The position numbers were made by a program, and so were the translations under genes. From positions 54,824 through 74,823 of IMG/VR virus record IMGVR_UViG_3300015607_002134: 20,000 nt of DNA; one strand, given 5' to 3'. Source of the DNA: an uncultured virus (IMG/VR IMGVR_UViG_3300015607_002134). Taxonomy: Duplodnaviria; Heunggongvirae; Uroviricota; Caudoviricetes. Shown piece by piece: positions 1,142 to 18,902 of this stretch. The notes beneath the pieces are model-generated. The model had not been told where the DNA came from and made no database searches. It saw only the letters and a program-made list of their open reading frames with translations. How positions within the stretch are numbered: position 1 is the first letter of the stretch; each line of letters begins with the position of its first letter.

Positions 1142-1462
1142 ATGTCAAAACATACAAACAAACATTGGTTAAGAGAGAAAGAATTTATCTCTCTTAAAAG
1201 AGAATTGGATGAACTTTGGGACACTATTCCTGTCGTTAGATGGAGAAGAATTCCACACACAAGAGTTCATGAGATAAACGCTAGATTGCGTCATAAATTC
1301 TATAATGAATATCATGGTTGGTGTCATACTGCCCCAAAACATTATAGAAAAACATTAAATAGAATACAAAGAGCTAAGTCTAAACAAGTTCTTTATAAAG
1401 TCCTAAATGGTAAAGAAGTTTCTTTCGAGGATTGTTATAAAGGATGTAACTGGTATTGGTAA
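1142..1462 (+). CDS. Small basic hypothetical protein
   Basis: 106-aa K/R/H/W-rich ORF overlapping the next start. Confidence 0.7.
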   Translation: MSKHTNKHWLREKEFISLKRELDELWDTIPVVRWRRIPHTRVHEINARLRHKFYNEYHGWCHTAPKHYRKTLNRIQRAKSKQVLYKVLNGKEVSFEDCYKGCNWYW

Positions 1463-1743
1463 TGAAATTAATAATTATAAATAGTGGCAATAGAATTTCT
1501 ATTGACTTTGATTCAAAGGTTAAGATTAACTCTGGTACCTTACACTCTCTTAAAGAACTAGTAACTCTCAAAGATATTGAGAAAGAAGTTCGAGAGTATC
1601 TTGGAGTTGAAAATTGGAGAACTAGAGTTATGCCTGGTTTCGATTCAACAACTATACATACTGGTAGTGACGAGGAATATAATCGTATTAAAACTATTGT
1701 TAGAAGGGATAATATAATTGAAAAACTATTAGAAAATGATTGA
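1456..1743 (+). CDS. Hypothetical protein with C-terminal RDxxIxxLL motif
   Basis: Overlaps both neighbours; ends IVRRDNIIEKLLEND; the ATG at 1462 is a more likely start. Confidence 0.7.
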   Translation: MVMKLIIINSGNRISIDFDSKVKINSGTLHSLKELVTLKDIEKEVREYLGVENWRTRVMPGFDSTTIHTGSDEEYNRIKTIVRRDNIIEKLLEND

Positions 1744-2212
1744 TAAATTTGAGGGAGAAAATAGATTTTTATCTAATTTTTACCCATCTGAAATAACACA
1801 CGAAGGTATTGTTTATCCAACAAATGAACACTACTATGTTGCCATGAAAATTAATGAACCACAGTATATTACAATAGATGGTGAATTGAAAAATCTAGAT
1901 ATAAAAAGATCTAGAGTTTATGTCTCAAAAATTAAAACCGCAGGTGATGTTAAGAGACTTGGTAGAAAGTTAAAGGTCAGAGATGATTGGGATGATGTTA
2001 AATTATCCGTTATGGAATATGGGGTTAGACAAAAGTTTAACAAACATGAGGATCTTAAAAATATGTTACTCGATACGGGTGATGAAGAGTTAATTGAAGG
2101 TAACTGGTGGGGTGACACTTACTGGGGAGTATGTAATGGTAAGGGGGAAAATCACCTAGGTAAAATACTAATGAGAGTTAGAGAAGAGATTAGATGTCCA
2201 ACCTCTGTGTGA
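1736..2212 (+). CDS. NADAR (YbiA-like) family ADP-ribosyl/N-glycosidase
   Basis: FLSNFY, PTNEHYY, W..VK..VM...KF, LLDTG..ELIE, WGD.YWG, G.N.LGK.LM.VR motifs of NADAR. Confidence 0.92.
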   Translation: MIDKFEGENRFLSNFYPSEITHEGIVYPTNEHYYVAMKINEPQYITIDGELKNLDIKRSRVYVSKIKTAGDVKRLGRKLKVRDDWDDVKLSVMEYGVRQKFNKHEDLKNMLLDTGDEELIEGNWWGDTYWGVCNGKGENHLGKILMRVREEIRCPTSV

Positions 2213-2242
2213 TTTTCTTTTACCACTAGCTACCAGGCATAG

Positions 2243-2269
2243 TTTTGAGTTACAAATTTATTATCTTTG
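2243..2269 (+). promoter_or_regulatory. Bacteroidota-type promoter upstream of the methyltransferase operon
   Basis: TATCTTTG at 2262-2269 and TTTTG at 2243-2247, intergenic. Confidence 0.45.
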
Positions 2270-2334
2270 TATAGAAATGGACGACAATAAACTTAGTCAT
2301 ATATTAGTTATATAACCAATAAAATATTTTTTAA

Positions 2335-3315
2335 ATGAGTATAATTTCCTATTTTGGTGGTAAGTCAAGTAATGTGTTTATGAATTTTATAAACACTCGA
2401 ATACCAAAAGATGGTAGTATTAAAACCTATGTTGAACCATTTAGTGGAGCAATGGGTACATTCATGGATGATGATTCATTGAAATTTGATACTGTCATTT
2501 ATAATGATAAGAACAGACACCAAGTTAATCTATTTAAGTGTTGTTCAGAACCCGATAAGTTTATTCCCTATCTTGAAAATATAAAAAACGGTCTACTAAA
2601 GACATCTGAGACTGATCCACTTAAGAAGTGGGATTTCTATAAATCTATTTATAAAGATTATACTAAAAATGATTTTTTAGATAATAATAATTTCCAAATT
2701 GGTGATTTTGAAAAGGCTGCAATTTATGCTTTCCTTATTACATCTTCACATAATTCTGTTTATCCGAGAGGGGCAGGATTTAATGGATATAAAAAGGATA
2801 GAGATAAGTTAAAGTTGGAAGTACTTATTAATAAACTTAAAAAGAACACCTATACACAAAAGCTAAAATCTATTACAGAGTTCTCAAATATTGATTTTGA
2901 GGAACTAATTAAAAAGTATGACTCTGAAGATACATTTATGTATCTTGATCCTCCTTATGCTAGATTTAATGAAGATAAGGGAGATGATGATGCGAAGCGT
3001 TTATTTTGGTATGGTGCTGACTCTGATGGAGTTTTTGGTCCATCTTCACATAGAAGATTAATAGAATTATTGAAGAATACTAAGTGCAGATGGTCTCTAT
3101 CATACTACTATTTCCCATTATTGGATGAATTACTTCCTCGTGGTGAATATTACTGGGAACAGAAAGAAGTATTTAGAAGTTCTGCTCAAGGTGGTAATAA
3201 TCACCAATTAAAGGGTAAACAAGAAAAGGGTGTCGAACTTTTGATAATGAACTACGATCCATCTACTGGTAAGAAAACAAATTTAGCGCATGTGGATAGA
3301 CGAGTTGAAATCTAG
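2335..3315 (+). CDS. Dam-like (D12 class) DNA adenine N6-methyltransferase
   Basis: YFGGKS, YVEPFSG (motif I), IYND, YLDPPY (motif IV), terminal ELLIMNY. Confidence 0.92.
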   Translation: MSIISYFGGKSSNVFMNFINTRIPKDGSIKTYVEPFSGAMGTFMDDDSLKFDTVIYNDKNRHQVNLFKCCSEPDKFIPYLENIKNGLLKTSETDPLKKWDFYKSIYKDYTKNDFLDNNNFQIGDFEKAAIYAFLITSSHNSVYPRGAGFNGYKKDRDKLKLEVLINKLKKNTYTQKLKSITEFSNIDFEELIKKYDSEDTFMYLDPPYARFNEDKGDDDAKRLFWYGADSDGVFGPSSHRRLIELLKNTKCRWSLSYYYFPLLDELLPRGEYYWEQKEVFRSSAQGGNNHQLKGKQEKGVELLIMNYDPSTGKKTNLAHVDRRVEI

Positions 3316-4012
3316 TGATTTAGTCAATGTAATGCCTTACATGACTTTGAATAAGAATCTTAATAACTTTATTAAGATTCAATTTAGTATGGCTTACCAT
3401 GAACCGGATGAACTATTGAATAGAGATAAATTGATACATCTCGTTTCAAATGAGTTTAATATGGCAATATCGAATAAAATAATGAAAGAGTTTAATTCAG
3501 TAAATGTCTTTGATTATATCGATAAAAGTGGTATTGGTGATATTCAAGTTTTACCATTAAATGATGTTATTAAAATAGCTGAGGAGTTTTACCATAAGAC
3601 AGATTCTTATAAGTATCTAATCACCAATGGTAATTTGGGTAGCTTTCTACAAGATTCTTCAAGATTTACCATTACACCAGTCACTAATAGTATATCAAAT
3701 TGGTCATCACTTACATATAATATTGGTAAGTTTGGAGATTTGGATGTTTGGATTGATCCAGTTCTTGAATGGAAAGATACAACAGGCTATCTTTTCGATG
3801 GAATCAACATTAACATTGGTGATTTCACAGCAACGATCAGTAATCAAGCAACATTTACACCAAGATTGATATTTGACTTAGAGATTGATTTTAGGATTAT
3901 TAATCCTAAATTATTTTTTGTAGTAACTGATAAGACATCAAAGTCATATTCAAGATACAAATCTCTACTAAGAGATATTAAAATTAATGATGTTTTAGAT
4001 GAAGAAAATTAG
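3290..4012 (+). CDS. Degenerate gp23-type major capsid protein-like protein with C-terminal RDIKINDVL motif
   Basis: LVSNEFNMAISNKIM, YLITNGNLGSFL, IGKFGDLDVWIDP and ATFTPRL follow the order of T4 gp23 C-terminal elements (recalled sequence); only 240 aa. Confidence 0.55.
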   Translation: MWIDELKSSDLVNVMPYMTLNKNLNNFIKIQFSMAYHEPDELLNRDKLIHLVSNEFNMAISNKIMKEFNSVNVFDYIDKSGIGDIQVLPLNDVIKIAEEFYHKTDSYKYLITNGNLGSFLQDSSRFTITPVTNSISNWSSLTYNIGKFGDLDVWIDPVLEWKDTTGYLFDGININIGDFTATISNQATFTPRLIFDLEIDFRIINPKLFFVVTDKTSKSYSRYKSLLRDIKINDVLDEEN

Positions 4013-4256
4013 AAATTCATATTTAAGAATAAAACAGAGTGGTGATAATGACCCGAATTCCGGAGTATTTGACCCAGATGTATCTGCTGATATTGATGGT
4101 AATGTGAGGGTTGATGGATTGGTATTGGTTGATCGTAAAACTGGAAAAGATTGGCAAATCTCTATATATGATGGTGAAATAATGATAGAACCACTTGAGA
4201 AAGAGGAGAGAAGAGATTATAGAATTAAAAAGATAATAACAGATGGAAGTAAGTAA
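3999..4256 (+). CDS. Hypothetical protein with C-terminal RDYRIKKII motif
   Basis: Overlapping operon ORF; GLVLVDRKTGKDWQISIYDG beta-meander resembles short tail-fibre modules. Confidence 0.7.
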   Translation: MKKIRNSYLRIKQSGDNDPNSGVFDPDVSADIDGNVRVDGLVLVDRKTGKDWQISIYDGEIMIEPLEKEERRDYRIKKIITDGSK

Positions 4257-4626
4257 GCATTTGGATAAAATTAAATCAATGGGATTTGATATATCAATTG
4301 ATTGGAATAGTGAAATTAATATTTGGTATAATGCTAATGATATTTACCCAGCTACTGCTTATTCTGCTGAGATATTACATTGTGCATTCTATCAGAGTAA
4401 AACATCGGGATATTCATTTGAACAAGTTATAGAGTCTTGTTGCGATGCTTTCTATGCTTGGTATAATAAAAATGTTGATACTATTAAGTATTTTGATAAA
4501 AACTATAATGCAGATGCACTTGAAAAGTTAGAAAGTTGTACACTTGGTGATATTACTAAACAAATTGCAAGAGATTTGAATCTTGTTGATGTGTTGGAAG
4601 TATTTGCTAAATACGATAGAGATTAA
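4243..4626 (+). CDS. Hypothetical protein with near-terminal RDLNLVDVL motif
   Basis: Last ORF of the + strand operon; stop overlaps the convergent gene. Confidence 0.7.
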   Translation: MEVSKHLDKIKSMGFDISIDWNSEINIWYNANDIYPATAYSAEILHCAFYQSKTSGYSFEQVIESCCDAFYAWYNKNVDTIKYFDKNYNADALEKLESCTLGDITKQIARDLNLVDVLEVFAKYDRD

Positions 4627-12859: not shown

Positions 12860-14197
12860 ATGGATTTATATAATAACGAGATGAGTAAATTAGTCACATT
12901 AAACGGAATTGATGATCAAAAACTACTTGATGAGATCATTGATAATGAAATAATTGTTATCGAAGATATACAAGGTAGCAAGATATGGGTAAATTGGGAT
13001 GGTGAATCATTCACTATAAAACCAAAATCTATAAGTAATAATGCTATAAATCTTATAGATTTAGCAATGCAGAATTATTACAACCCAGCAACAAACTATT
13101 TCAATTCACTTGATAGTAGAGTTAGGGGACTTTTAAATAAAAAATGGTGGTTCTGTTTTGAATATTTTCCAGATGAGCAACCAGCAAATATTGAATATCA
13201 AAAGTTACCAAAGAATAATTTAGTATTAACTTCAATATGCAAGAATGGTAAATATGACTACTCAATAGAGGAATTAGACGAGTATGCTAGATTGTTTGAT
13301 GTTGATGTGATTCCTATTGTTTTTCAAGGAAAACTTTCACAAAGAATGATAGAAGCTATTAAATACTTCATTAATACCAGTGAGGATGATTTAGAGTATG
13401 TTTTTGGTGAGAAGTCATTTGCTTTCTTCTTCTATAAAATACTAAATCCAGCATCTGGTAATTCATTCCTAATGGATGGTGAGAATTTCCAAAACAATTT
13501 AGAGAAGCTTATAATCAGAGTAAAAGATAGAGATATTTCATTTGAAATATTAAATCCTCTTTATAAGAGAGTTTCTGATACCAATAATACAGAATTTGTT
13601 GAGATATACACTCTAATACTTGTTAACTTTTTAAACTTCTGTCAATCTGTTGATCTTAAAGATATTAAACTTAAAGGTGAAAAGAAAGATGAAGTTTATA
13701 TTTACTTAATGTGTAAGTTATATAACATATACTTATCAGAAGTAAAGGATGATTTAGTTAATTTTGATTTTGTTATCCCTGAATTCTTTGATAAGGATAA
13801 ATTCAAAATTAACAGAGAATTGATTTCCAATAAACTAACTAAGGAGTATATAAGTGAAAATGATAAATTAGAATACATTTTTAAAGTTATTTTAGGTTCT
13901 TTCTCGAAGAAAAGAAAGAAACCAATAGGTGTATTTACTGATAATACTGTTAATCTATTTAATGCTTTTGTTGATGATATTAGTAATTATATCGATGAAT
14001 ATCTTAATAAGATTCGTGAGGTTGAATTAACAAGAGCTGGTCTATTAGACTTTGGAGATTTCTTTGAAATAAAGTATGACCAAGACGCTGAGGGTGAGGT
14101 ATATCCTGATGTTTATTCTGAATTCGAGAAACAACCAGATGAGTCGAAGAAAAAAGGTAAAGGTGGTAAAGGCGCTCTTCCTAAAATGCCTAAGTAA
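12860..14197 (+). CDS. RNA ligase (Rnl2)-like protein with degenerate motif I
   Basis: VIEDIQGSKI in place of EKxDGxN, FCFEYF (motif III-like), VIPIVFQG, LEKLIIR (motif IV-like); helical C-terminal region. Confidence 0.55.
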   Translation: MDLYNNEMSKLVTLNGIDDQKLLDEIIDNEIIVIEDIQGSKIWVNWDGESFTIKPKSISNNAINLIDLAMQNYYNPATNYFNSLDSRVRGLLNKKWWFCFEYFPDEQPANIEYQKLPKNNLVLTSICKNGKYDYSIEELDEYARLFDVDVIPIVFQGKLSQRMIEAIKYFINTSEDDLEYVFGEKSFAFFFYKILNPASGNSFLMDGENFQNNLEKLIIRVKDRDISFEILNPLYKRVSDTNNTEFVEIYTLILVNFLNFCQSVDLKDIKLKGEKKDEVYIYLMCKLYNIYLSEVKDDLVNFDFVIPEFFDKDKFKINRELISNKLTKEYISENDKLEYIFKVILGSFSKKRKKPIGVFTDNTVNLFNAFVDDISNYIDEYLNKIREVELTRAGLLDFGDFFEIKYDQDAEGEVYPDVYSEFEKQPDESKKKGKGGKGALPKMPK

Positions 14198-14198
14198 T

Positions 14199-14411
14199 AT
14201 GAAAGAAATTAATATGAGTATTAAGAGTGTTAAAGTAGAGGCTACCACAAGACATGTTAGAGCTCAGTGGACCGCACAAATGGCTAGTGATATAGCATCA
14301 TTGACATCAATTGATTTCGAGGCGGAGCTTAGAGCAATACTTAGACAGCAGAATAGAACAGAGAAGTTATCTAAAATTTTAAATTCAGTTAAACATTATA
14401 ATAGTTTTTAG
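14199..14411 (+). CDS. 70-aa gp23 major-capsid-like fragment with C-terminal RTEKLSKIL motif
   Basis: Likely start ATG 14199, just after the upstream stop; EINMSIKSVKVEATTRHVRAQWTAQMASDIASLTSIDFEAELRAIL matches the conserved gp23 segment EAKSRQLKAAYSIELAQDL...DADAELSGIL (recalled). Confidence 0.7.
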   Translation: MKEINMSIKSVKVEATTRHVRAQWTAQMASDIASLTSIDFEAELRAILRQQNRTEKLSKILNSVKHYNSF

Positions 14412-14423
14412 TTATAAATTTCC

Positions 14424-15650
14424 ATGAATGTAGTTGTTAATTGGAATGATGTTAATCGAACATCGATTCGTGAGAAGTTAAGTTATAAGAAAAACAGTCT
14501 TCAATTCTTACCACAGTGTATAGAGAATATATCAGACAATGATTTCTTTACCTTTAAGGGTAAGAAACTAAAAGTCGCATACGTTGTTGATATAGTTCAC
14601 AATTTAATATTAAAATATTATTTCAAAAAGGATAATCAATTTAGCTTATCAGCAGTTGTGTTGAAAGATAAGTATGGATATCTTTATAATTATTATATTG
14701 ACTATCTGGTTAGTAGAAATATCATTATGATGTTGGTTAACTATAAATCAGGTACTAGATCACGAATCTATGCATTGAATGAGTCTGTACTTAGAGGTAA
14801 GATTAAACGATATAGAAATTCTGATAAAGTATTACTTAAAAAGTATAAAAATAAGGTATCTCAGGTAGAAGAGGGTGGAATAGAGAACTCATTAATTGAT
14901 TCTGATGTTAAATCTAAATTAGTAGATGACTTATTTCATATCGAAATTGAATTTGATAGGTCTATATTCTATCTTGACTCACTTAAGAACGAAGATACTG
15001 ATATTTATAATCGAAATAAGTATAGTGTCGAGTGTATCAATGATAAACACATATTTTATCACTTTGATAATTATGGTAGAATGCACACTAATTTTACAAT
15101 ACTTAAATCTTTCATAAGAAAGAACTGTCTTTTGATAGATGGTAAACAAACTTGTGAGATTGATATTAAGAACAGCCAACCATTGTTCTTATCTAAACTA
15201 ATTGAAGATAGTCATACTAAGTGGGTGAATGATGATGAGTTACAGTTATTTAAGTTCTTAACCACAACTGGTAAATATTACCAATATATAATGACTGAAT
15301 TGGGTATAACAAACAAGGGAGATGCCAAAGAACTGACATATAAGGTTTTATTTGGTAGGAACGCGAAGAATAGTAAGCCTGATGCTTTATTTTCGAGTAT
15401 TTTCCCAACTATACATAATTTTATAAAGCTTTATAAGAAAGAAATGGGTGACTATAAAATTTTAGCATATGAGTTACAGAAGGCAGAATCAAATTTAATT
15501 TTCAATAAAATCATTAGACAAATAATGACACTTTATCCAGAGATAAAGATGGTGACGGTACATGATAGTATTATTGTCCCGATGGAGGATAAAGATAGAG
15601 TTTCAGCTATTTTTAATTCTAAACTATATGAAGAATTTGGAATAATATAA
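14424..15650 (+). CDS. Minimal family-A polymerase-like protein (TV-Pol-like) with probable N-terminal winged-HTH
   Basis: GRMHT; motif A EIDIKNSQP; motif B K...YKVLFG; LQKAES; motif C TVHDS; no exonuclease domain recognisable. Confidence 0.7.
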   Translation: MNVVVNWNDVNRTSIREKLSYKKNSLQFLPQCIENISDNDFFTFKGKKLKVAYVVDIVHNLILKYYFKKDNQFSLSAVVLKDKYGYLYNYYIDYLVSRNIIMMLVNYKSGTRSRIYALNESVLRGKIKRYRNSDKVLLKKYKNKVSQVEEGGIENSLIDSDVKSKLVDDLFHIEIEFDRSIFYLDSLKNEDTDIYNRNKYSVECINDKHIFYHFDNYGRMHTNFTILKSFIRKNCLLIDGKQTCEIDIKNSQPLFLSKLIEDSHTKWVNDDELQLFKFLTTTGKYYQYIMTELGITNKGDAKELTYKVLFGRNAKNSKPDALFSSIFPTIHNFIKLYKKEMGDYKILAYELQKAESNLIFNKIIRQIMTLYPEIKMVTVHDSIIVPMEDKDRVSAIFNSKLYEEFGII

Positions 15651-15841: not shown

Positions 15842-16378
15842 ATGATAGGTTTGGATCAAGCTACATCTTCTTATGTGATTATAACGTCTGATAAAATAGA
15901 CGATATTGAGACTGTTTTATACGGCAGAGACTATTCTATTATCCCAATCAAAGAATTTTATAACGGTGATTATAAGAACTCAATCATATCATATGGTAGA
16001 GTTGATAATGATAATTTAAGAAGAGATGTCCTTTTCTTACTTGATAAGTTTAACTTCAACTCAGCAATCATAAAATATCATGGAGAAAGTGTTATTAAGA
16101 GAATTAATAGAGATGGTTCTGAAGTTCCTCTTGATTTAGTTATGTATAATACTGATTTCAACAAACCTTCTTATTTATACAATGGATATTCATTCTCTTT
16201 TAATGAGAAAAAGAGATACTACTTTCCTTCTAAGAAAGAAGATATTAAAAAGGGTATGATTGTTGAGTTTTTTACAAATAATAAATGGGTTGAAAAACAA
16301 GTTTCCAACCCAGAATTAGAATATGAGAAGATGTATAAGCTACTTATTAAGTATAATAAGTTAAGAATTGCTATATAA
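15842..16378 (+). CDS. Hypothetical protein
   Basis: 178-aa ORF with TTAATATATA 4 nt upstream. Confidence 0.75.
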   Translation: MIGLDQATSSYVIITSDKIDDIETVLYGRDYSIIPIKEFYNGDYKNSIISYGRVDNDNLRRDVLFLLDKFNFNSAIIKYHGESVIKRINRDGSEVPLDLVMYNTDFNKPSYLYNGYSFSFNEKKRYYFPSKKEDIKKGMIVEFFTNNKWVEKQVSNPELEYEKMYKLLIKYNKLRIAI

Positions 16379-17162
16379 TTTCAAAATTAACAATATTCTT
16401 ATTGAATGAGAATTTAACAGGCTTCATGTAGAAGTCTTTCCTATTATTGAATACCATCAGACCTCCTTTATCTTTACCATTTTCAGCTCTTCCAACAATT
16501 ACCTTATTTGGTTTTATTAGTGGTGACTCTATTACAGCCATTCCTTGAATACTACCAATAATAGATGGGTCTTTTGGATTTGTTGGAGTTGTTACAAAAC
16601 TAGCTACTTTGAAATATTTTGATGATCCTTTACCAACTATAACAAATGTTGCTGGTCCAATCCTTCCATATGTTGCAATATAACCACTAGCTGACATTAT
16701 TCTAGTGATGATCTTTCTCGCATTTGATTGCAGATTATCATAATCACTATTATTTGGATCATTTGTTATTGTAACATTTGATATTTGTGGTGGTAGCGAG
16801 CTGTGATTTTTCAGAGAATCTAAAAAATTAATAACACTATTCCAAATACCCTGATATGATGAGAATTGTTTCTTATTAAATGATGACAGTGATGTTGTGA
16901 AAACTCTTGGAGCTATTATTCCTACACTACTCCCACCAAATCCAATCATTGATGATGGTTCTTCAATATTGACTCTTTTTGATAATTCCTCTTCTTTGTT
17001 ATCGAGAATGGCATCAAGAGTTATTTCTCTATTTTTGATTTCTCTCATTAATTCTTCATCAGAGGAATCAATCACATCTATATAATGAAGAGAAGATGAA
17101 TCACTTATTGAATCATCTTCATTATAGTTGCATATTAATTCTAAATCTTCCCTACTTATCAT
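16371..17162 (-). CDS. Degenerate gp23 capsid-like domain with N-terminal REITLDAIL motif
   Basis: RKIITRIMSASGYIATYGRIGPATFVIVG...IIGSIQGMAVIESP...VIVGR...GGL parallels gp23 KALLFQI..EIARQTGRGEGNFIIAS...FAGVLGG..VYID...FTVGYKG...AGI (recalled). Confidence 0.6.
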   Translation of the reverse strand: MISREDLELICNYNEDDSISDSSSLHYIDVIDSSDEELMREIKNREITLDAILDNKEEELSKRVNIEEPSSMIGFGGSSVGIIAPRVFTTSLSSFNKKQFSSYQGIWNSVINFLDSLKNHSSLPPQISNVTITNDPNNSDYDNLQSNARKIITRIMSASGYIATYGRIGPATFVIVGKGSSKYFKVASFVTTPTNPKDPSIIGSIQGMAVIESPLIKPNKVIVGRAENGKDKGGLMVFNNRKDFYMKPVKFSFNKNIVNFEII

Positions 17163-17910
17163 ATTTGTTGACCATTCCTATTTTTTGGGAACTCATTGCT
17201 ATATGACGACTAAGTTCATCATTTGTCATTTTAGCTGAATTGTTTAATATTTGAAGGTTTCTTTGATACCATTTCATATCTGGTTGTTCTTTTGCATGAT
17301 ATAAGTGATAACATCTTGCTCTCAATTCTGTCCATTTTAGGAATTTGTGAACTTTTATTGTTTGAAAGTCATCTTCACCACCCCATCCGATGAAATCTTC
17401 ATTCCATCCGCCTATTTTCATAATAGACTCTTTTCGGAACATTGCTATTCCACCAGAGATGTTAATTTTTTGATTGTCAGTTTCTCCTCTTCCAGGTCTT
17501 GATATTTGTAATATTTGATTGAAATCCATATTACTTTCTTGTTGTTCTAAATCAACAACTGTGTGATATGGACTAACCATTTCATATTCTTGTAATGCCT
17601 TAAGACCATTGATGAAATCATTTGGATTCATTATTAAATCTGAGTCTCCAAAAACAATAAGGGGAGCTGTTGAGTATTTAATTGCTATATTGAATGCCCA
17701 TGATCTGTTATATGGCATATCTGATTTCACGAAAATGTGTTTTGCTCTTAAATTAAGGTTTTCAATTTTTGAGTGTGTGTCTTGTTCAATTAGTAGTACT
17801 TCCACACCGTTGAATCCATTTATCCATTCGAGTACTCTTTTAAGATTCTGTAATCTATCCATCCTATGTCTATATCCTATTACATAGGTAAATGCGTATG
17901 CTTGATTCAT
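17152..17910 (-). CDS. Glycosyltransferase (GT2/GT7 galactosyltransferase-like, GT-A fold)
   Basis: YNRSWAFN, DxD (FGDSD), GGWNEDFIGWGGEDD, YHLYH; likely start ATG 17910. Confidence 0.88.
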   Translation of the reverse strand: MNQAYAFTYVIGYRHRMDRLQNLKRVLEWINGFNGVEVLLIEQDTHSKIENLNLRAKHIFVKSDMPYNRSWAFNIAIKYSTAPLIVFGDSDLIMNPNDFINGLKALQEYEMVSPYHTVVDLEQQESNMDFNQILQISRPGRGETDNQKINISGGIAMFRKESIMKIGGWNEDFIGWGGEDDFQTIKVHKFLKWTELRARCYHLYHAKEQPDMKWYQRNLQILNNSAKMTNDELSRHIAMSSQKIGMVNKYDK

Positions 17911-17960
17911 TAAATAATATAGTTTTTTATTTATAAAAAAAATCATTTGAAAGTTGTGGA

Positions 17961-17983
17961 ATTTGGCAAAATGATTATATTTG
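17961..17983 (+). promoter_or_regulatory. Bacteroidota-type promoter
   Basis: TATATTTG at 17976-17983, 12 nt before ATG 17996. Confidence 0.55.
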
Positions 17984-17995
17984 TATATATACAAT

Positions 17996-18400
17996 ATGAA
18001 GAAAATAGGTAGAATTGAAAAAGTAAGTTTCCCCGATTTGAGTATCGATTCAATTGATGCTAAGGTAGATACTGGTGCTTATGGCACCGCTCTTCATGTT
18101 AATGGTATACGAACAAGGAATGGGAAACTTTCCTTTTGGGTAGATGATCCATCTTGTAGATTATACTTTGATAAGTATAAGGTTATTAACGTAAAAAGCT
18201 CTTTTGGTAAAACACAAAAGAGATATTCAATAATGACAAGAATTAAGGTTGGTGATTCCACATATAAGATATATGTATCTCTAACTAATAGAAAGGATAT
18301 GAAATATCCCGTTTTGATTGGTAGAAGGTTTCTATATAAGTTCCACTATATAGTAGATGTAAGAAAAAAACATATTAATGATAGAGCTAAAAAAGTGTAA
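17996..18400 (+). CDS. RimB/RimK-associated retropepsin-like aspartic protease (often labelled 'ATP-dependent Zn protease')
   Basis: IGRIE.V.FPDL, AKVDTGAY.TALH, VKSS.G..Q.R, SLTNR..M.YPVLIGR.FL. Confidence 0.85.
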   Translation: MKKIGRIEKVSFPDLSIDSIDAKVDTGAYGTALHVNGIRTRNGKLSFWVDDPSCRLYFDKYKVINVKSSFGKTQKRYSIMTRIKVGDSTYKIYVSLTNRKDMKYPVLIGRRFLYKFHYIVDVRKKHINDRAKKV

Positions 18401-18902
18401 TTTCATCACTGGTGACCCAAGGTCGGTTTCGTTCGGGGTTCATAGTGTTTTATCCTTCTTAGAATTAGAAGGTCGAAATATAATGCTTTTATGTAAACCC
18501 AAGACAATTGATACTTCAAGTAGCTTAAAGTACATCTGGAATGTTAAGAAGGAGTTCACTGATTTCTTTTCATTTAAGAAACTACTCAAAGATAATTCTG
18601 CATTATTTAGAATTGATTTACTTGTTGTAGACCTATGGAGTCTGAGAAATATACCTATTGAGTATAAGCAGGCTCTTGATGAAACAGGTATACAATATAT
18701 TATACTATCGAAACAGTATCACTACACATCATCTGAGGACATTGGCGACTTTCATATTCAAAATGAATCTGATGGTACTTTTAACTCAAAATATACAATT
18801 ACAGATAAGGTTAGTGGTTGGTCTTCATCCCTTGAAGATTTGAAGAAGTCTTATATCAGAGACAAGAGAATAGATGGCATTATAGGAGACGAAGAAATCT
18901 AA
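18378..18902 (+). CDS. Degenerate RecA/P-loop-like protein with C-terminal RDKRIDGII motif
   Basis: NFITGDPRSVS at the Walker A position without GK[S/T]; IDLLVVD resembles Walker B. Confidence 0.5.
   Translation: MIELKKCNFITGDPRSVSFGVHSVLSFLELEGRNIMLLCKPKTIDTSSSLKYIWNVKKEFTDFFSFKKLLKDNSALFRIDLLVVDLWSLRNIPIEYKQALDETGIQYIILSKQYHYTSSEDIGDFHIQNESDGTFNSKYTITDKVSGWSSSLEDLKKSYIRDKRIDGIIGDEEI

Follow-up and report, generated by a model that had tools for sequence, protein, structure and literature searches.

A 70-codon gene in the DNA of an uncultured huge phage encodes an excerpt of the T4-type major capsid protein gp23 followed by a basic, amphipathic C-terminal tag. The product is a gp23 derivative and not a capsid protein, and the mini-gene is very probably functional as well as gp23-derived. 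As judged from the genomes compared here, it is one of a class of 6 to 16 predicted tagged mini-proteins per complete genome, of which at least 4 other types are gp23 pieces and one is a scaffold-like piece.

A gp23 excerpt encoded as a separate gene

The window, i.e., the whole stretch of DNA analyzed here, forms the final 20 kb of a viral contig of 74.8 kb, with a G+C content of about 30%. In the open reading frame (ORF) listing, the mini-gene (14199-14411, plus strand) runs from an ATG at 14199 to a TAG at 14409-14411 and encodes 70 aa. Only 1 nt separates its ATG from the TAA (14195-14197) of a 445-aa gene upstream, and 12 nt separate its end from the ATG (14424) of the next gene, in agreement with the initial annotation of this DNA, which had described an uninterrupted ORF packed between two genes. 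The features of the mini-gene and its surroundings are as follows.

14199..14411, plus strand: mini-gene, 70 codons plus TAG (ORF listing, orthologues, dN/dS)
14199..14345, plus strand: gp23 excerpt, residues 1-49, equivalent to T4 gp23 residues ~247-295 (Pfam, T4 alignment, AlphaFold2), containing a strand segment, the short P-domain helix, and the first half of the spine helix
14352..14381, plus strand: tag core NRTEKLSKIL, residues 52-61 (orthologue columns, tag alignment)
14382-14408, plus strand: short variable tail, residues 62-70
12860..14197, plus strand: 445-aa gene, RNA-ligase-like, a lead only (ESM Atlas, 0.92-0.94 to RNA_ligase clusters)
14424..15650, plus strand: 408-aa gene, family-A polymerase palm-like, a lead only (ESM Atlas first match, 0.97)
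16371..17162, minus strand: 263-aa compact HK97-fold capsid paralogue (Pfam, AlphaFold2, Foldseek)
17152-17994, minus strand: family-2 glycosyltransferase (Glyco_transf_7C, E 1.2e-9; PHROG 1721 galactosyl transferase, E 6e-17)

The mini-protein matched the Pfam family Gp23 (PF07068) at 38.2 bits, above the curated cut-off of 24.4 (E 1.5e-9), with its residues 1-63 falling on profile positions 131-193 of 376; it also matched PHROG 138 'major head protein' (E 1.4e-7). Homology to T4 gp23 and gp24 (PF07068; PDB 5vf3, 6uzc, 7vrt, and 1yue) was thus clear at profile positions 131-193. Against PDB sequences (phmmer), residues 4-54 aligned to T4 gp23 residues 250-300, the same segment to which the first ~50 aa had been matched by eye, although at a pairwise E-value of merely 0.11-0.42, so that the significance of the homology rests on the profile. 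Of 14 orthologues scanned with Pfam Gp23, 7 scored above the cut-off (best E 2.9e-15), 4 scored below it, and 3 had no match; in those that passed, the first or second residue corresponded to profile position 131-136. No family was matched at E<=1 in either the PADLOC or the NCBIfam library, word-index searching found no longer relatives, and the sole name returned by cluster look-up was 'hypothetical protein'. The mini-protein covers about one sixth of the Gp23 profile and is without the A domain, the P-domain sheet, and the N-arm, and thus cannot serve as a shell subunit. A separate, full-length capsid protein of 565 aa (100.5 bits) is encoded in the same contig.

The AlphaFold2 model (31-row alignment, mean pLDDT 76) consisted of coil (residues 1-25), a helix (26-36), and a continuous helix (40-69), and had no Foldseek match in the PDB at E<=0.001. 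That the helix continues directly into NRTEKLSKIL, as the initial annotation had read from the letters, was reproduced by the single helix 40-69. Its further statement that so short a piece cannot form an HK97 fold also held, given a model of coil plus two helices and a match confined to profile positions 131-193. Within the T4 framework, the excerpt takes in the strand by which the chain leaves the E-loop-equivalent region, the acidic P-domain helix, which is short, and the beginning of the spine helix. The T4 letters in the alignment at positions 268, 275, 285, 287, and 292 (A, A, D, D, and G) are the exact residues named by Fang et al. 2022 (PMC9546572), and hence the numbering is sound. 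In passages of that paper, the T4 head-length mutations A268V, A275T, D285V, and D287V/N are placed near the short, negatively charged P-domain helix, which is close to the quasi-threefold axes and contacts neighboring capsomers through its charges; G292, together with V306 and V307, all in the spine helix, is substituted in a triple mutant that bypasses the gp31 chaperonin (PMC9546572). The mini-protein carries A, A, D, E, and A at the five positions, i.e., the head-length residues of T4 gp23 are retained or conservatively changed. Because all five positions from 268 to 292 are spanned, the excerpt corresponds to the part of a T4-type capsid protein that joins capsomers and determines size. 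The two differ at the end of the helix, which is acidic in the canonical proteins, whereas the mini-protein has a basic C-terminal motif.

The excerpt resembled canonical gp23-type proteins rather than the capsid proteins of its own clade. The family profile scored 53.5-56.4 bits on 8 full-length canonical proteins versus 22.3-24.8 bits on 6 own-clade proteins, among which this segment is nearly invariant, and BLASTP medians for the window-type excerpt were 46 bits (canonical) versus 17 bits (own-clade). Between the mini-protein and the contig's own 565-aa capsid protein, BLASTP gave no alignment at E<=100, on which ground a recent copy of the phage's own capsid gene was rejected as the origin.

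The flanking genes were both identified from language-model features only, as leads, and no profile library named them. The 445-aa gene had no Pfam family above cut-off. The 408-aa gene, with the automatic name 'DNA polymerase family A palm domain', had no match in Pfam, NCBIfam, or PADLOC. Within the window, the mini-gene and the 408-aa gene share a frame, with a TAG and a TAA between them; read-through from one into the other was considered and rejected because the frames differ in LR756502 and LR745206. Scored against Pfam, the read-through product reached 37.4 bits, compared to 38.2 bits for the mini-gene alone.

About 2 kb downstream of the mini-gene lies the 263-aa paralogue, which is kept in most related loci. 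It matched Gp23 profile positions 201-316 at E 5e-4, below the cut-off, and its AlphaFold2 model (pTM 0.74) had 121 Foldseek matches in the PDB at E<=1e-3, the top ones being all capsid proteins, including T4 gp23 and gp24. Its N-terminal extension contains a tag-like helix (residues 36-53), followed by a low-confidence linker. A split capsid gene, with this ORF completing the mini-gene's portion, was rejected because the paralogue has a complete HK97 fold with its own strands and helix; further against it, the mini-gene is present without the 263-aa ORF in several loci (a few others encode a similar ORF but no mini-gene), and the two do not strictly co-occur. The glycosyltransferase adjoins the paralogue. 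The paralogue slot (178-aa gene/glycosyltransferase) was seen to hold other cargo in loci L016, L017, L033, L054, L062, and L069, namely, a methyltransferase-like ORF of 200-208 aa or, in L069, a cysteine-synthase-like ORF of 293 aa (both identified by eye).

Conservation, selection, and inheritance

Related loci were collected by way of the flanking 445-aa gene (72 from IMG/VR and 2 from GenBank). In GenBank, the closest records are two genomes of uncultured phages (642,428 and 634,780 bases), with DNA identities of 75.5% and 70.3% over 78% and 71%, respectively, of a 4.4-kb query, and the window lies in a Mahaphage-type genome. Sections of Al-Shayeb et al. 2020 assign the four largest genomes of that study (634, 636, 642, and 735 kb) to the Mahaphage clade and predict replication in Bacteroidetes for genomes above 634 kb (PMC7162821).

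In 49 of 73 loci, the family profile located an intact orthologue of 53-73 aa flanked by the same pair of genes; none of the 36 distinct sequences was interrupted. In 11 of the 24 loci lacking the mini-gene, the flanking genes were just 60-126 nt apart. Two loci had an insertion at the place expected for the mini-gene: L044 (1488-2717) and L077 (6401-7630) encode a RuBisCO-large-subunit-like ORF of 409 aa (by eye) together with a 147-aa ORF between the flanking genes. The final base of the upstream gene's stop codon is shared with the start codon of the mini-gene in 21 of the 36 distinct orthologues, and the mini-gene looks translationally coupled to the gene upstream.

Nei-Gojobori dN/dS for the closest pairs was 0.16-0.4. 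The pooled value for 19 close pairs (not mutually independent) was 0.30 for the whole mini-gene, 0.36 for the excerpt, 0.19 for the tag, and 0.08 for the flanking gene. Synonymous divergence (pS) was no lower in the tag (0.43) than in the excerpt (0.37), and the tag is thus constrained as protein rather than as DNA. The initial annotation had named a missing gp23 profile match and neutral decay as the two outcomes that would count against its proposal; in fact the match is present (E 1.5e-9) and the gene is under purifying selection (dN/dS 0.30).

Mapped onto a FastTree tree of the flanking gene, presence and absence of the mini-gene could not be explained by fewer than 7 changes, of which well-supported branches force 5, whereas shuffled labels averaged 19.4. 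Inheritance has thus been mostly vertical, with repeated losses or gains. A profile built from 31 orthologues, when searched against 1.84 billion cluster representatives, matched 1475 of them at E<=1e-3 and 98 at E<=1e-10. Among the best 150 of the 1475, 105 were stand-alone proteins of 80 aa or less, and the layout was nearly always alike.

The C-terminal tag and the class of tagged mini-proteins

Across 33 aligned tag sequences, the clade consensus was R-x3-R-K-x-S/K-I-x-K-I-F, followed by 2-9 residues to the stop codon. R53 was the sole invariant column among 31 orthologues. The window's own tag, NRTEKLSKIL, keeps R53, K56, L57, I60, and L61 and scored <5 bits with the strict tag model; it represents a local variant that has diverged from the clade motif and is less basic. 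Orthologue tags scored 6-23 bits and all lay within 12 residues of the C terminus. So did every one of the 53 matches of at least 6 bits in ~0.9 Mb of related DNA, most of which were the orthologues used to build the model.

In the contig itself, 7 of 87 ORFs, the mini-gene excluded, have the pattern R-x(2,3)-[ILV]-x2-[ILV]-[ILF] within their C-terminal 22 residues, versus 1.09 expected from the pattern's internal frequency (P 1.4e-4, an optimistic value because the pattern was picked after looking). Four of the seven are inside the window. ORFs of the window with tag pattern matches are as follows.

1462..1743, plus strand: 93-aa ORF, local tag form at the C terminus
3290..4012, plus strand: 240-aa ORF, ending in RDIKINDVL plus an acidic tail
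3999..4256, plus strand: 85-aa ORF, local tag form at the C terminus
4243..4626, plus strand: 127-aa ORF, looser tag-like C terminus
18378..18902, plus strand: 174-aa ORF, local tag form at the C terminus

The 93-, 240-, 85-, and 127-aa ORFs form a run on the plus strand (1462-4626), in which the local tag is more acidic. The 240-aa ORF matched phrog_28442 (E 0.0015), a PHROG also matched by the 263-aa paralogue, and on that basis is possibly capsid-related; its hhalign comparison with the 263-aa family was not significant.

With regard to the origin of the tag, two observations point in different directions. In mini-proteins that hold the spine helix only, the acidic helix is complete and a linker separates it from the tag, which in this type makes the tag an appended module; a tag that is merely the natural end of the spine helix was partly rejected because of this order. 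When the tag matrix was run along own-clade capsid proteins, on the other hand, the best 13-residue match in 6 of 6 fell on the spine helix, in its distal half, at the place in register with the tag of the mini-protein. This match ranked first of ~550 positions, with scores of ~4 bits in five of the proteins and below zero in one; in canonical capsid proteins the best match fell at that helix in 0 of 8. In hmmsearch, the phage's own capsid protein likewise aligns through the tag columns. The tag may therefore descend from, or imitate, the end of the own-clade spine helix. A role as a DNA-level element, such as a promoter, was rejected because synonymous divergence is as high in the tag as elsewhere; a sigma-70 promoter scan returned 26 hits versus 26.3 in shuffles.

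Further tags and gp23 pieces were sought in five relatives, three of which CheckV rates as 97-98% complete. Each encodes one full-length capsid gene. Four also contain scattered small ORFs at Gp23 positions 159-194, 197-260, 302-356, and 26-51, and all the small ORFs that were read carry the same C-terminal motif; as delimited in the tagged pieces, the gp23 portions span positions 159-194, 197-260, and 302-354. The tag profile had 9, 13, 6, and 16 matches in these four genomes; 42 of the 44 matches were in open frames of 33-95 aa, and 27 of the 44 had E<=0.01 per genome. The fifth relative, G001 (the genome of locus L021; 596,785 bases, 98% complete), had 0 tag matches and no gp23 piece beyond its capsid gene. 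It is also without the mini-gene at the syntenic site and offers a natural negative genome for the tag's partner.

Sources other than gp23 were found for some of the mini-proteins. One tagged mini-protein of LR745206 was 54-58% identical to the repeats of an ORF of 727 aa that immediately precedes that genome's capsid gene. The counterpart of this ORF in the window's contig is the acidic repeat protein encoded just ahead of the capsid gene (48734-50851 of the G000 contig; L001, 3-1166), in which at least 12 tandem acidic repeats and poly-glutamate runs are scaffold-like. Three tagged mini-proteins share a tail-fibre-like N-terminal motif (E 1.6e-5 to 1.1e-4), and matches of others to portal, large terminase, and prohead protease were weak (E 0.02-0.17) and are leads only. 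A parent search for one composite mini-protein found itself alone. Unusual arrangements were seen at L098 (G003:165970-166390), where, by eye, a single ORF joins a tail-sheath-like motif at its N terminus to the tag and to a terminase-like motif. In the preceding ORF, an acidic tag is internal, and Gp23 profile positions 26-51 come after it.

The window gene conforms to this class as a stand-alone head-protein excerpt within the ~30-100 aa range and as a gene under purifying selection. Its likeness to canonical proteins was shared, by BLASTP, by A-domain pieces and, slightly, by spine-helix pieces. C-terminal gp23 pieces, however, had medians of 39 and 35 bits with own-clade proteins versus 24 and 22 bits with canonical ones, so that a 'foreign type' rule is not general; the scaffold piece was clearly of own type.

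Possible functions of the tagged excerpts

Canonical residues kept without the fold, a common handle, and a set that is variable or absent among genomes together point to competitive mimicry by means of a common docking or effector peptide. We tentatively propose that the mini-protein may be a molecular mimic that bears the handle common to its class and serves in conflicts, be it with host sensors or with rival phages. Freed from the rest of the fold, the excerpt would display the surface near the T4 quasi-threefold capsomer contacts and would compete for whatever binds that segment of a canonical T4-type capsid protein, while the tag would act as a shared handle or address linking all excerpts to one common partner. 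The arena would most likely be conflict, either by blocking host sensors of head proteins or by poisoning the assembly of a rival T4-type phage. The initial annotation had suggested a capsid mimic from the sequence alone; that suggestion gains partial support here, both from the canonical residues kept without the fold (53.5-56.4 versus 22.3-24.8 bits) and from the recurrence of the excerpt-plus-tag design on other gp23 pieces and a scaffold piece. The roles that it attached to the mimic, a decoy for capsid-sensing host defences or a dominant-negative bait, are candidate functions. The dynamics are also conflict-like, with at least 7 gains or losses, constraint looser than in the neighboring gene, and copy numbers that vary between genomes. 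Head proteins are reported as triggers of several bacterial defence systems (PMC13728456).

Several observations weigh against a role in conflict. The mini-gene belongs to an operon of putative nucleic-acid enzymes, a setting that is uninformative about capsids, and the window's tag is a weak match to the strict model, as are the matches of other tagged mini-proteins to portal, terminase, and prohead protease. The phage's own capsid protein has diverged in this segment, so that a decoy guarding its own segment is not obviously needed, and the C-terminal and scaffold pieces are of own type, which fits own head assembly better than the poisoning of rivals. More doubtful still than mimicry by the single gene is an extension of it to the whole class, i.e., an 'excerpt plus handle' system in which 6-16 mini-proteins would each present a segment of a head or virion protein on a shared C-terminal handle, and a common partner would neutralize the binders of that segment, be they host sensors or rival assembly intermediates. 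The window gene would then be the module for the head-length-determining capsid segment, in a panel of capsid, scaffold, and perhaps also portal, protease, terminase, and fibre segments.

An accessory role in the phage's own head assembly, the main rival to mimicry in conflict, is likewise possible, if on the unlikely side: the tag would dock the excerpt on the scaffold core or inner capsid surface, and the excerpt would tune capsomer contacts in a very large capsid or simply be packaged. The firmly identified sources of excerpts (gp23 and the scaffold-like repeat protein) are head proteins, the tag is also found on compact HK97-fold paralogues, and the same segment governs head length in T4. 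The in-register match of the tag matrix to the own-clade distal spine helix (6 of 6), as well as the own capsid alignment that crosses the tag columns, would also fit, although the likeness is statistically weak and the tag profile left the capsid genes unmatched in the genome scan. The mini-gene is, however, absent from 24 of 73 loci and a 98%-complete relative is without any tagged mini-protein, which is odd for a core assembly part; moreover, the mini-gene is located outside the structural module and its excerpt is unlike the phage's own capsid protein, with which BLASTP gave no alignment. If instead the gp23 ancestry were irrelevant, the mini-protein would be a stable helical body carrying an address tag for the membrane, a chaperonin, a clamp, a protease, or the capsid interior. 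The tag is indeed under tighter constraint than the excerpt (dN/dS 0.19 versus 0.36) and is found on mini-proteins without a recognizable parent as well as on larger, unrelated ORFs of the contig. Indifference to ancestry, however, predicts neither the retention of the gp23 consensus (E 1e-9 to 1e-15 over ~55 residues) nor that several different gp23 pieces would each be retained with the tag, and we regard it as improbable.

We give still less credence to a regulatory leader peptide, in which the C-terminal motif would stall the ribosome to control the downstream gene and the N-terminal excerpt would be the sensing part. SecM and MifM are monitoring substrates of this kind, stalling the ribosome a few codons before their stop. 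The motif is placed 2-9 residues before the stop in 33 of 33 aligned tags and a larger gene follows directly, both of which would fit. Tagged mini-proteins are, however, also found in tandem rows and before varied genes, the mini-gene appears to be coupled to the gene upstream, and a 141-nt stretch spanning its stop codon and the following start codon (14330-14470) folded no better than shuffles (z 0.20, one sequence). The least credible alternative, which we consider very improbable, is a functionless remnant of a duplicated or captured capsid gene in the course of decay. The mini-gene is a fragment, has been lost in some lineages, and is less constrained than its neighbor, all as expected of a remnant. 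Decay is nevertheless difficult to reconcile with 36 different versions of 53-73 aa that are all intact and free of stops, at a G+C content (~30%) where stops arise often, with a gp23 boundary that is constant in the orthologues passing the cut-off, with dN/dS of 0.16-0.4, and with hundreds of database clusters.

Short helices that address proteins to the prohead are known, including the N-terminal capsid-targeting sequence of T4, with the T4 internal proteins, and the coat-binding C-terminal helix of the P22 scaffold gp8. They resemble, by analogy, the role that the tag might have; the T4 sequence differs in being N-terminal and unrelated to the tag in sequence. Satellite proteins that redirect the capsid assembly of another virus include P4 Sid, SaPI CpmB, and SaPIbov5 Ccm, the last of which is a capsid-protein homologue. 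These are whole folded proteins, whereas the mini-gene encodes a 70-aa tagged fragment, one of many, in a huge phage. The closest parallel for a short gp23 stretch that is active alone, as a peptide, in phage-host conflict is Gol, which acts through the e14 Lit protease and EF-Tu, as described in part of a published account (PMC3014915). Gol, however, is part of the nascent capsid protein and triggers defence, whereas the excerpt is from mid-gp23 (250-300 of 521) and is a separate gene. According to that same portion, the Gol region sensed by Lit lies in the first quarter of T4 gp23; equivalence with the excerpt was rejected on account of these positions (PMC3014915). No description of capsid-fragment mini-genes or of the tag was found in the full-text literature, supplements aside, and in the available part of a jumbo-phage genomics review gp23 is mentioned solely as a clade marker.

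If the excerpts are mimics with a common handle, they would constitute a new kind of viral weapon or assembly control, in which short encoded copies of the most conserved contact segments of the virion act in trans. They would then also provide a handle on two open questions, namely, how the size of very large capsids is set and how phages cope with host sensors or rival phages that rely on conserved structural proteins. Even in the case of plain head assembly, tagged capsid excerpts would be a gene design that is currently annotated as small hypothetical ORFs, and the family is large, with 1475 cluster representatives for the window type alone. The same gp23 segment also occurs in a different setting: in seven metagenomic proteins of 86-125 aa (P0048, P0051, P0088, P0092, P0105, P0121, and P0150), it lies between copies of an F-K-F-x-R-G motif, and three of the seven have the conserved N-terminal gp23 motif too, outside its normal order.
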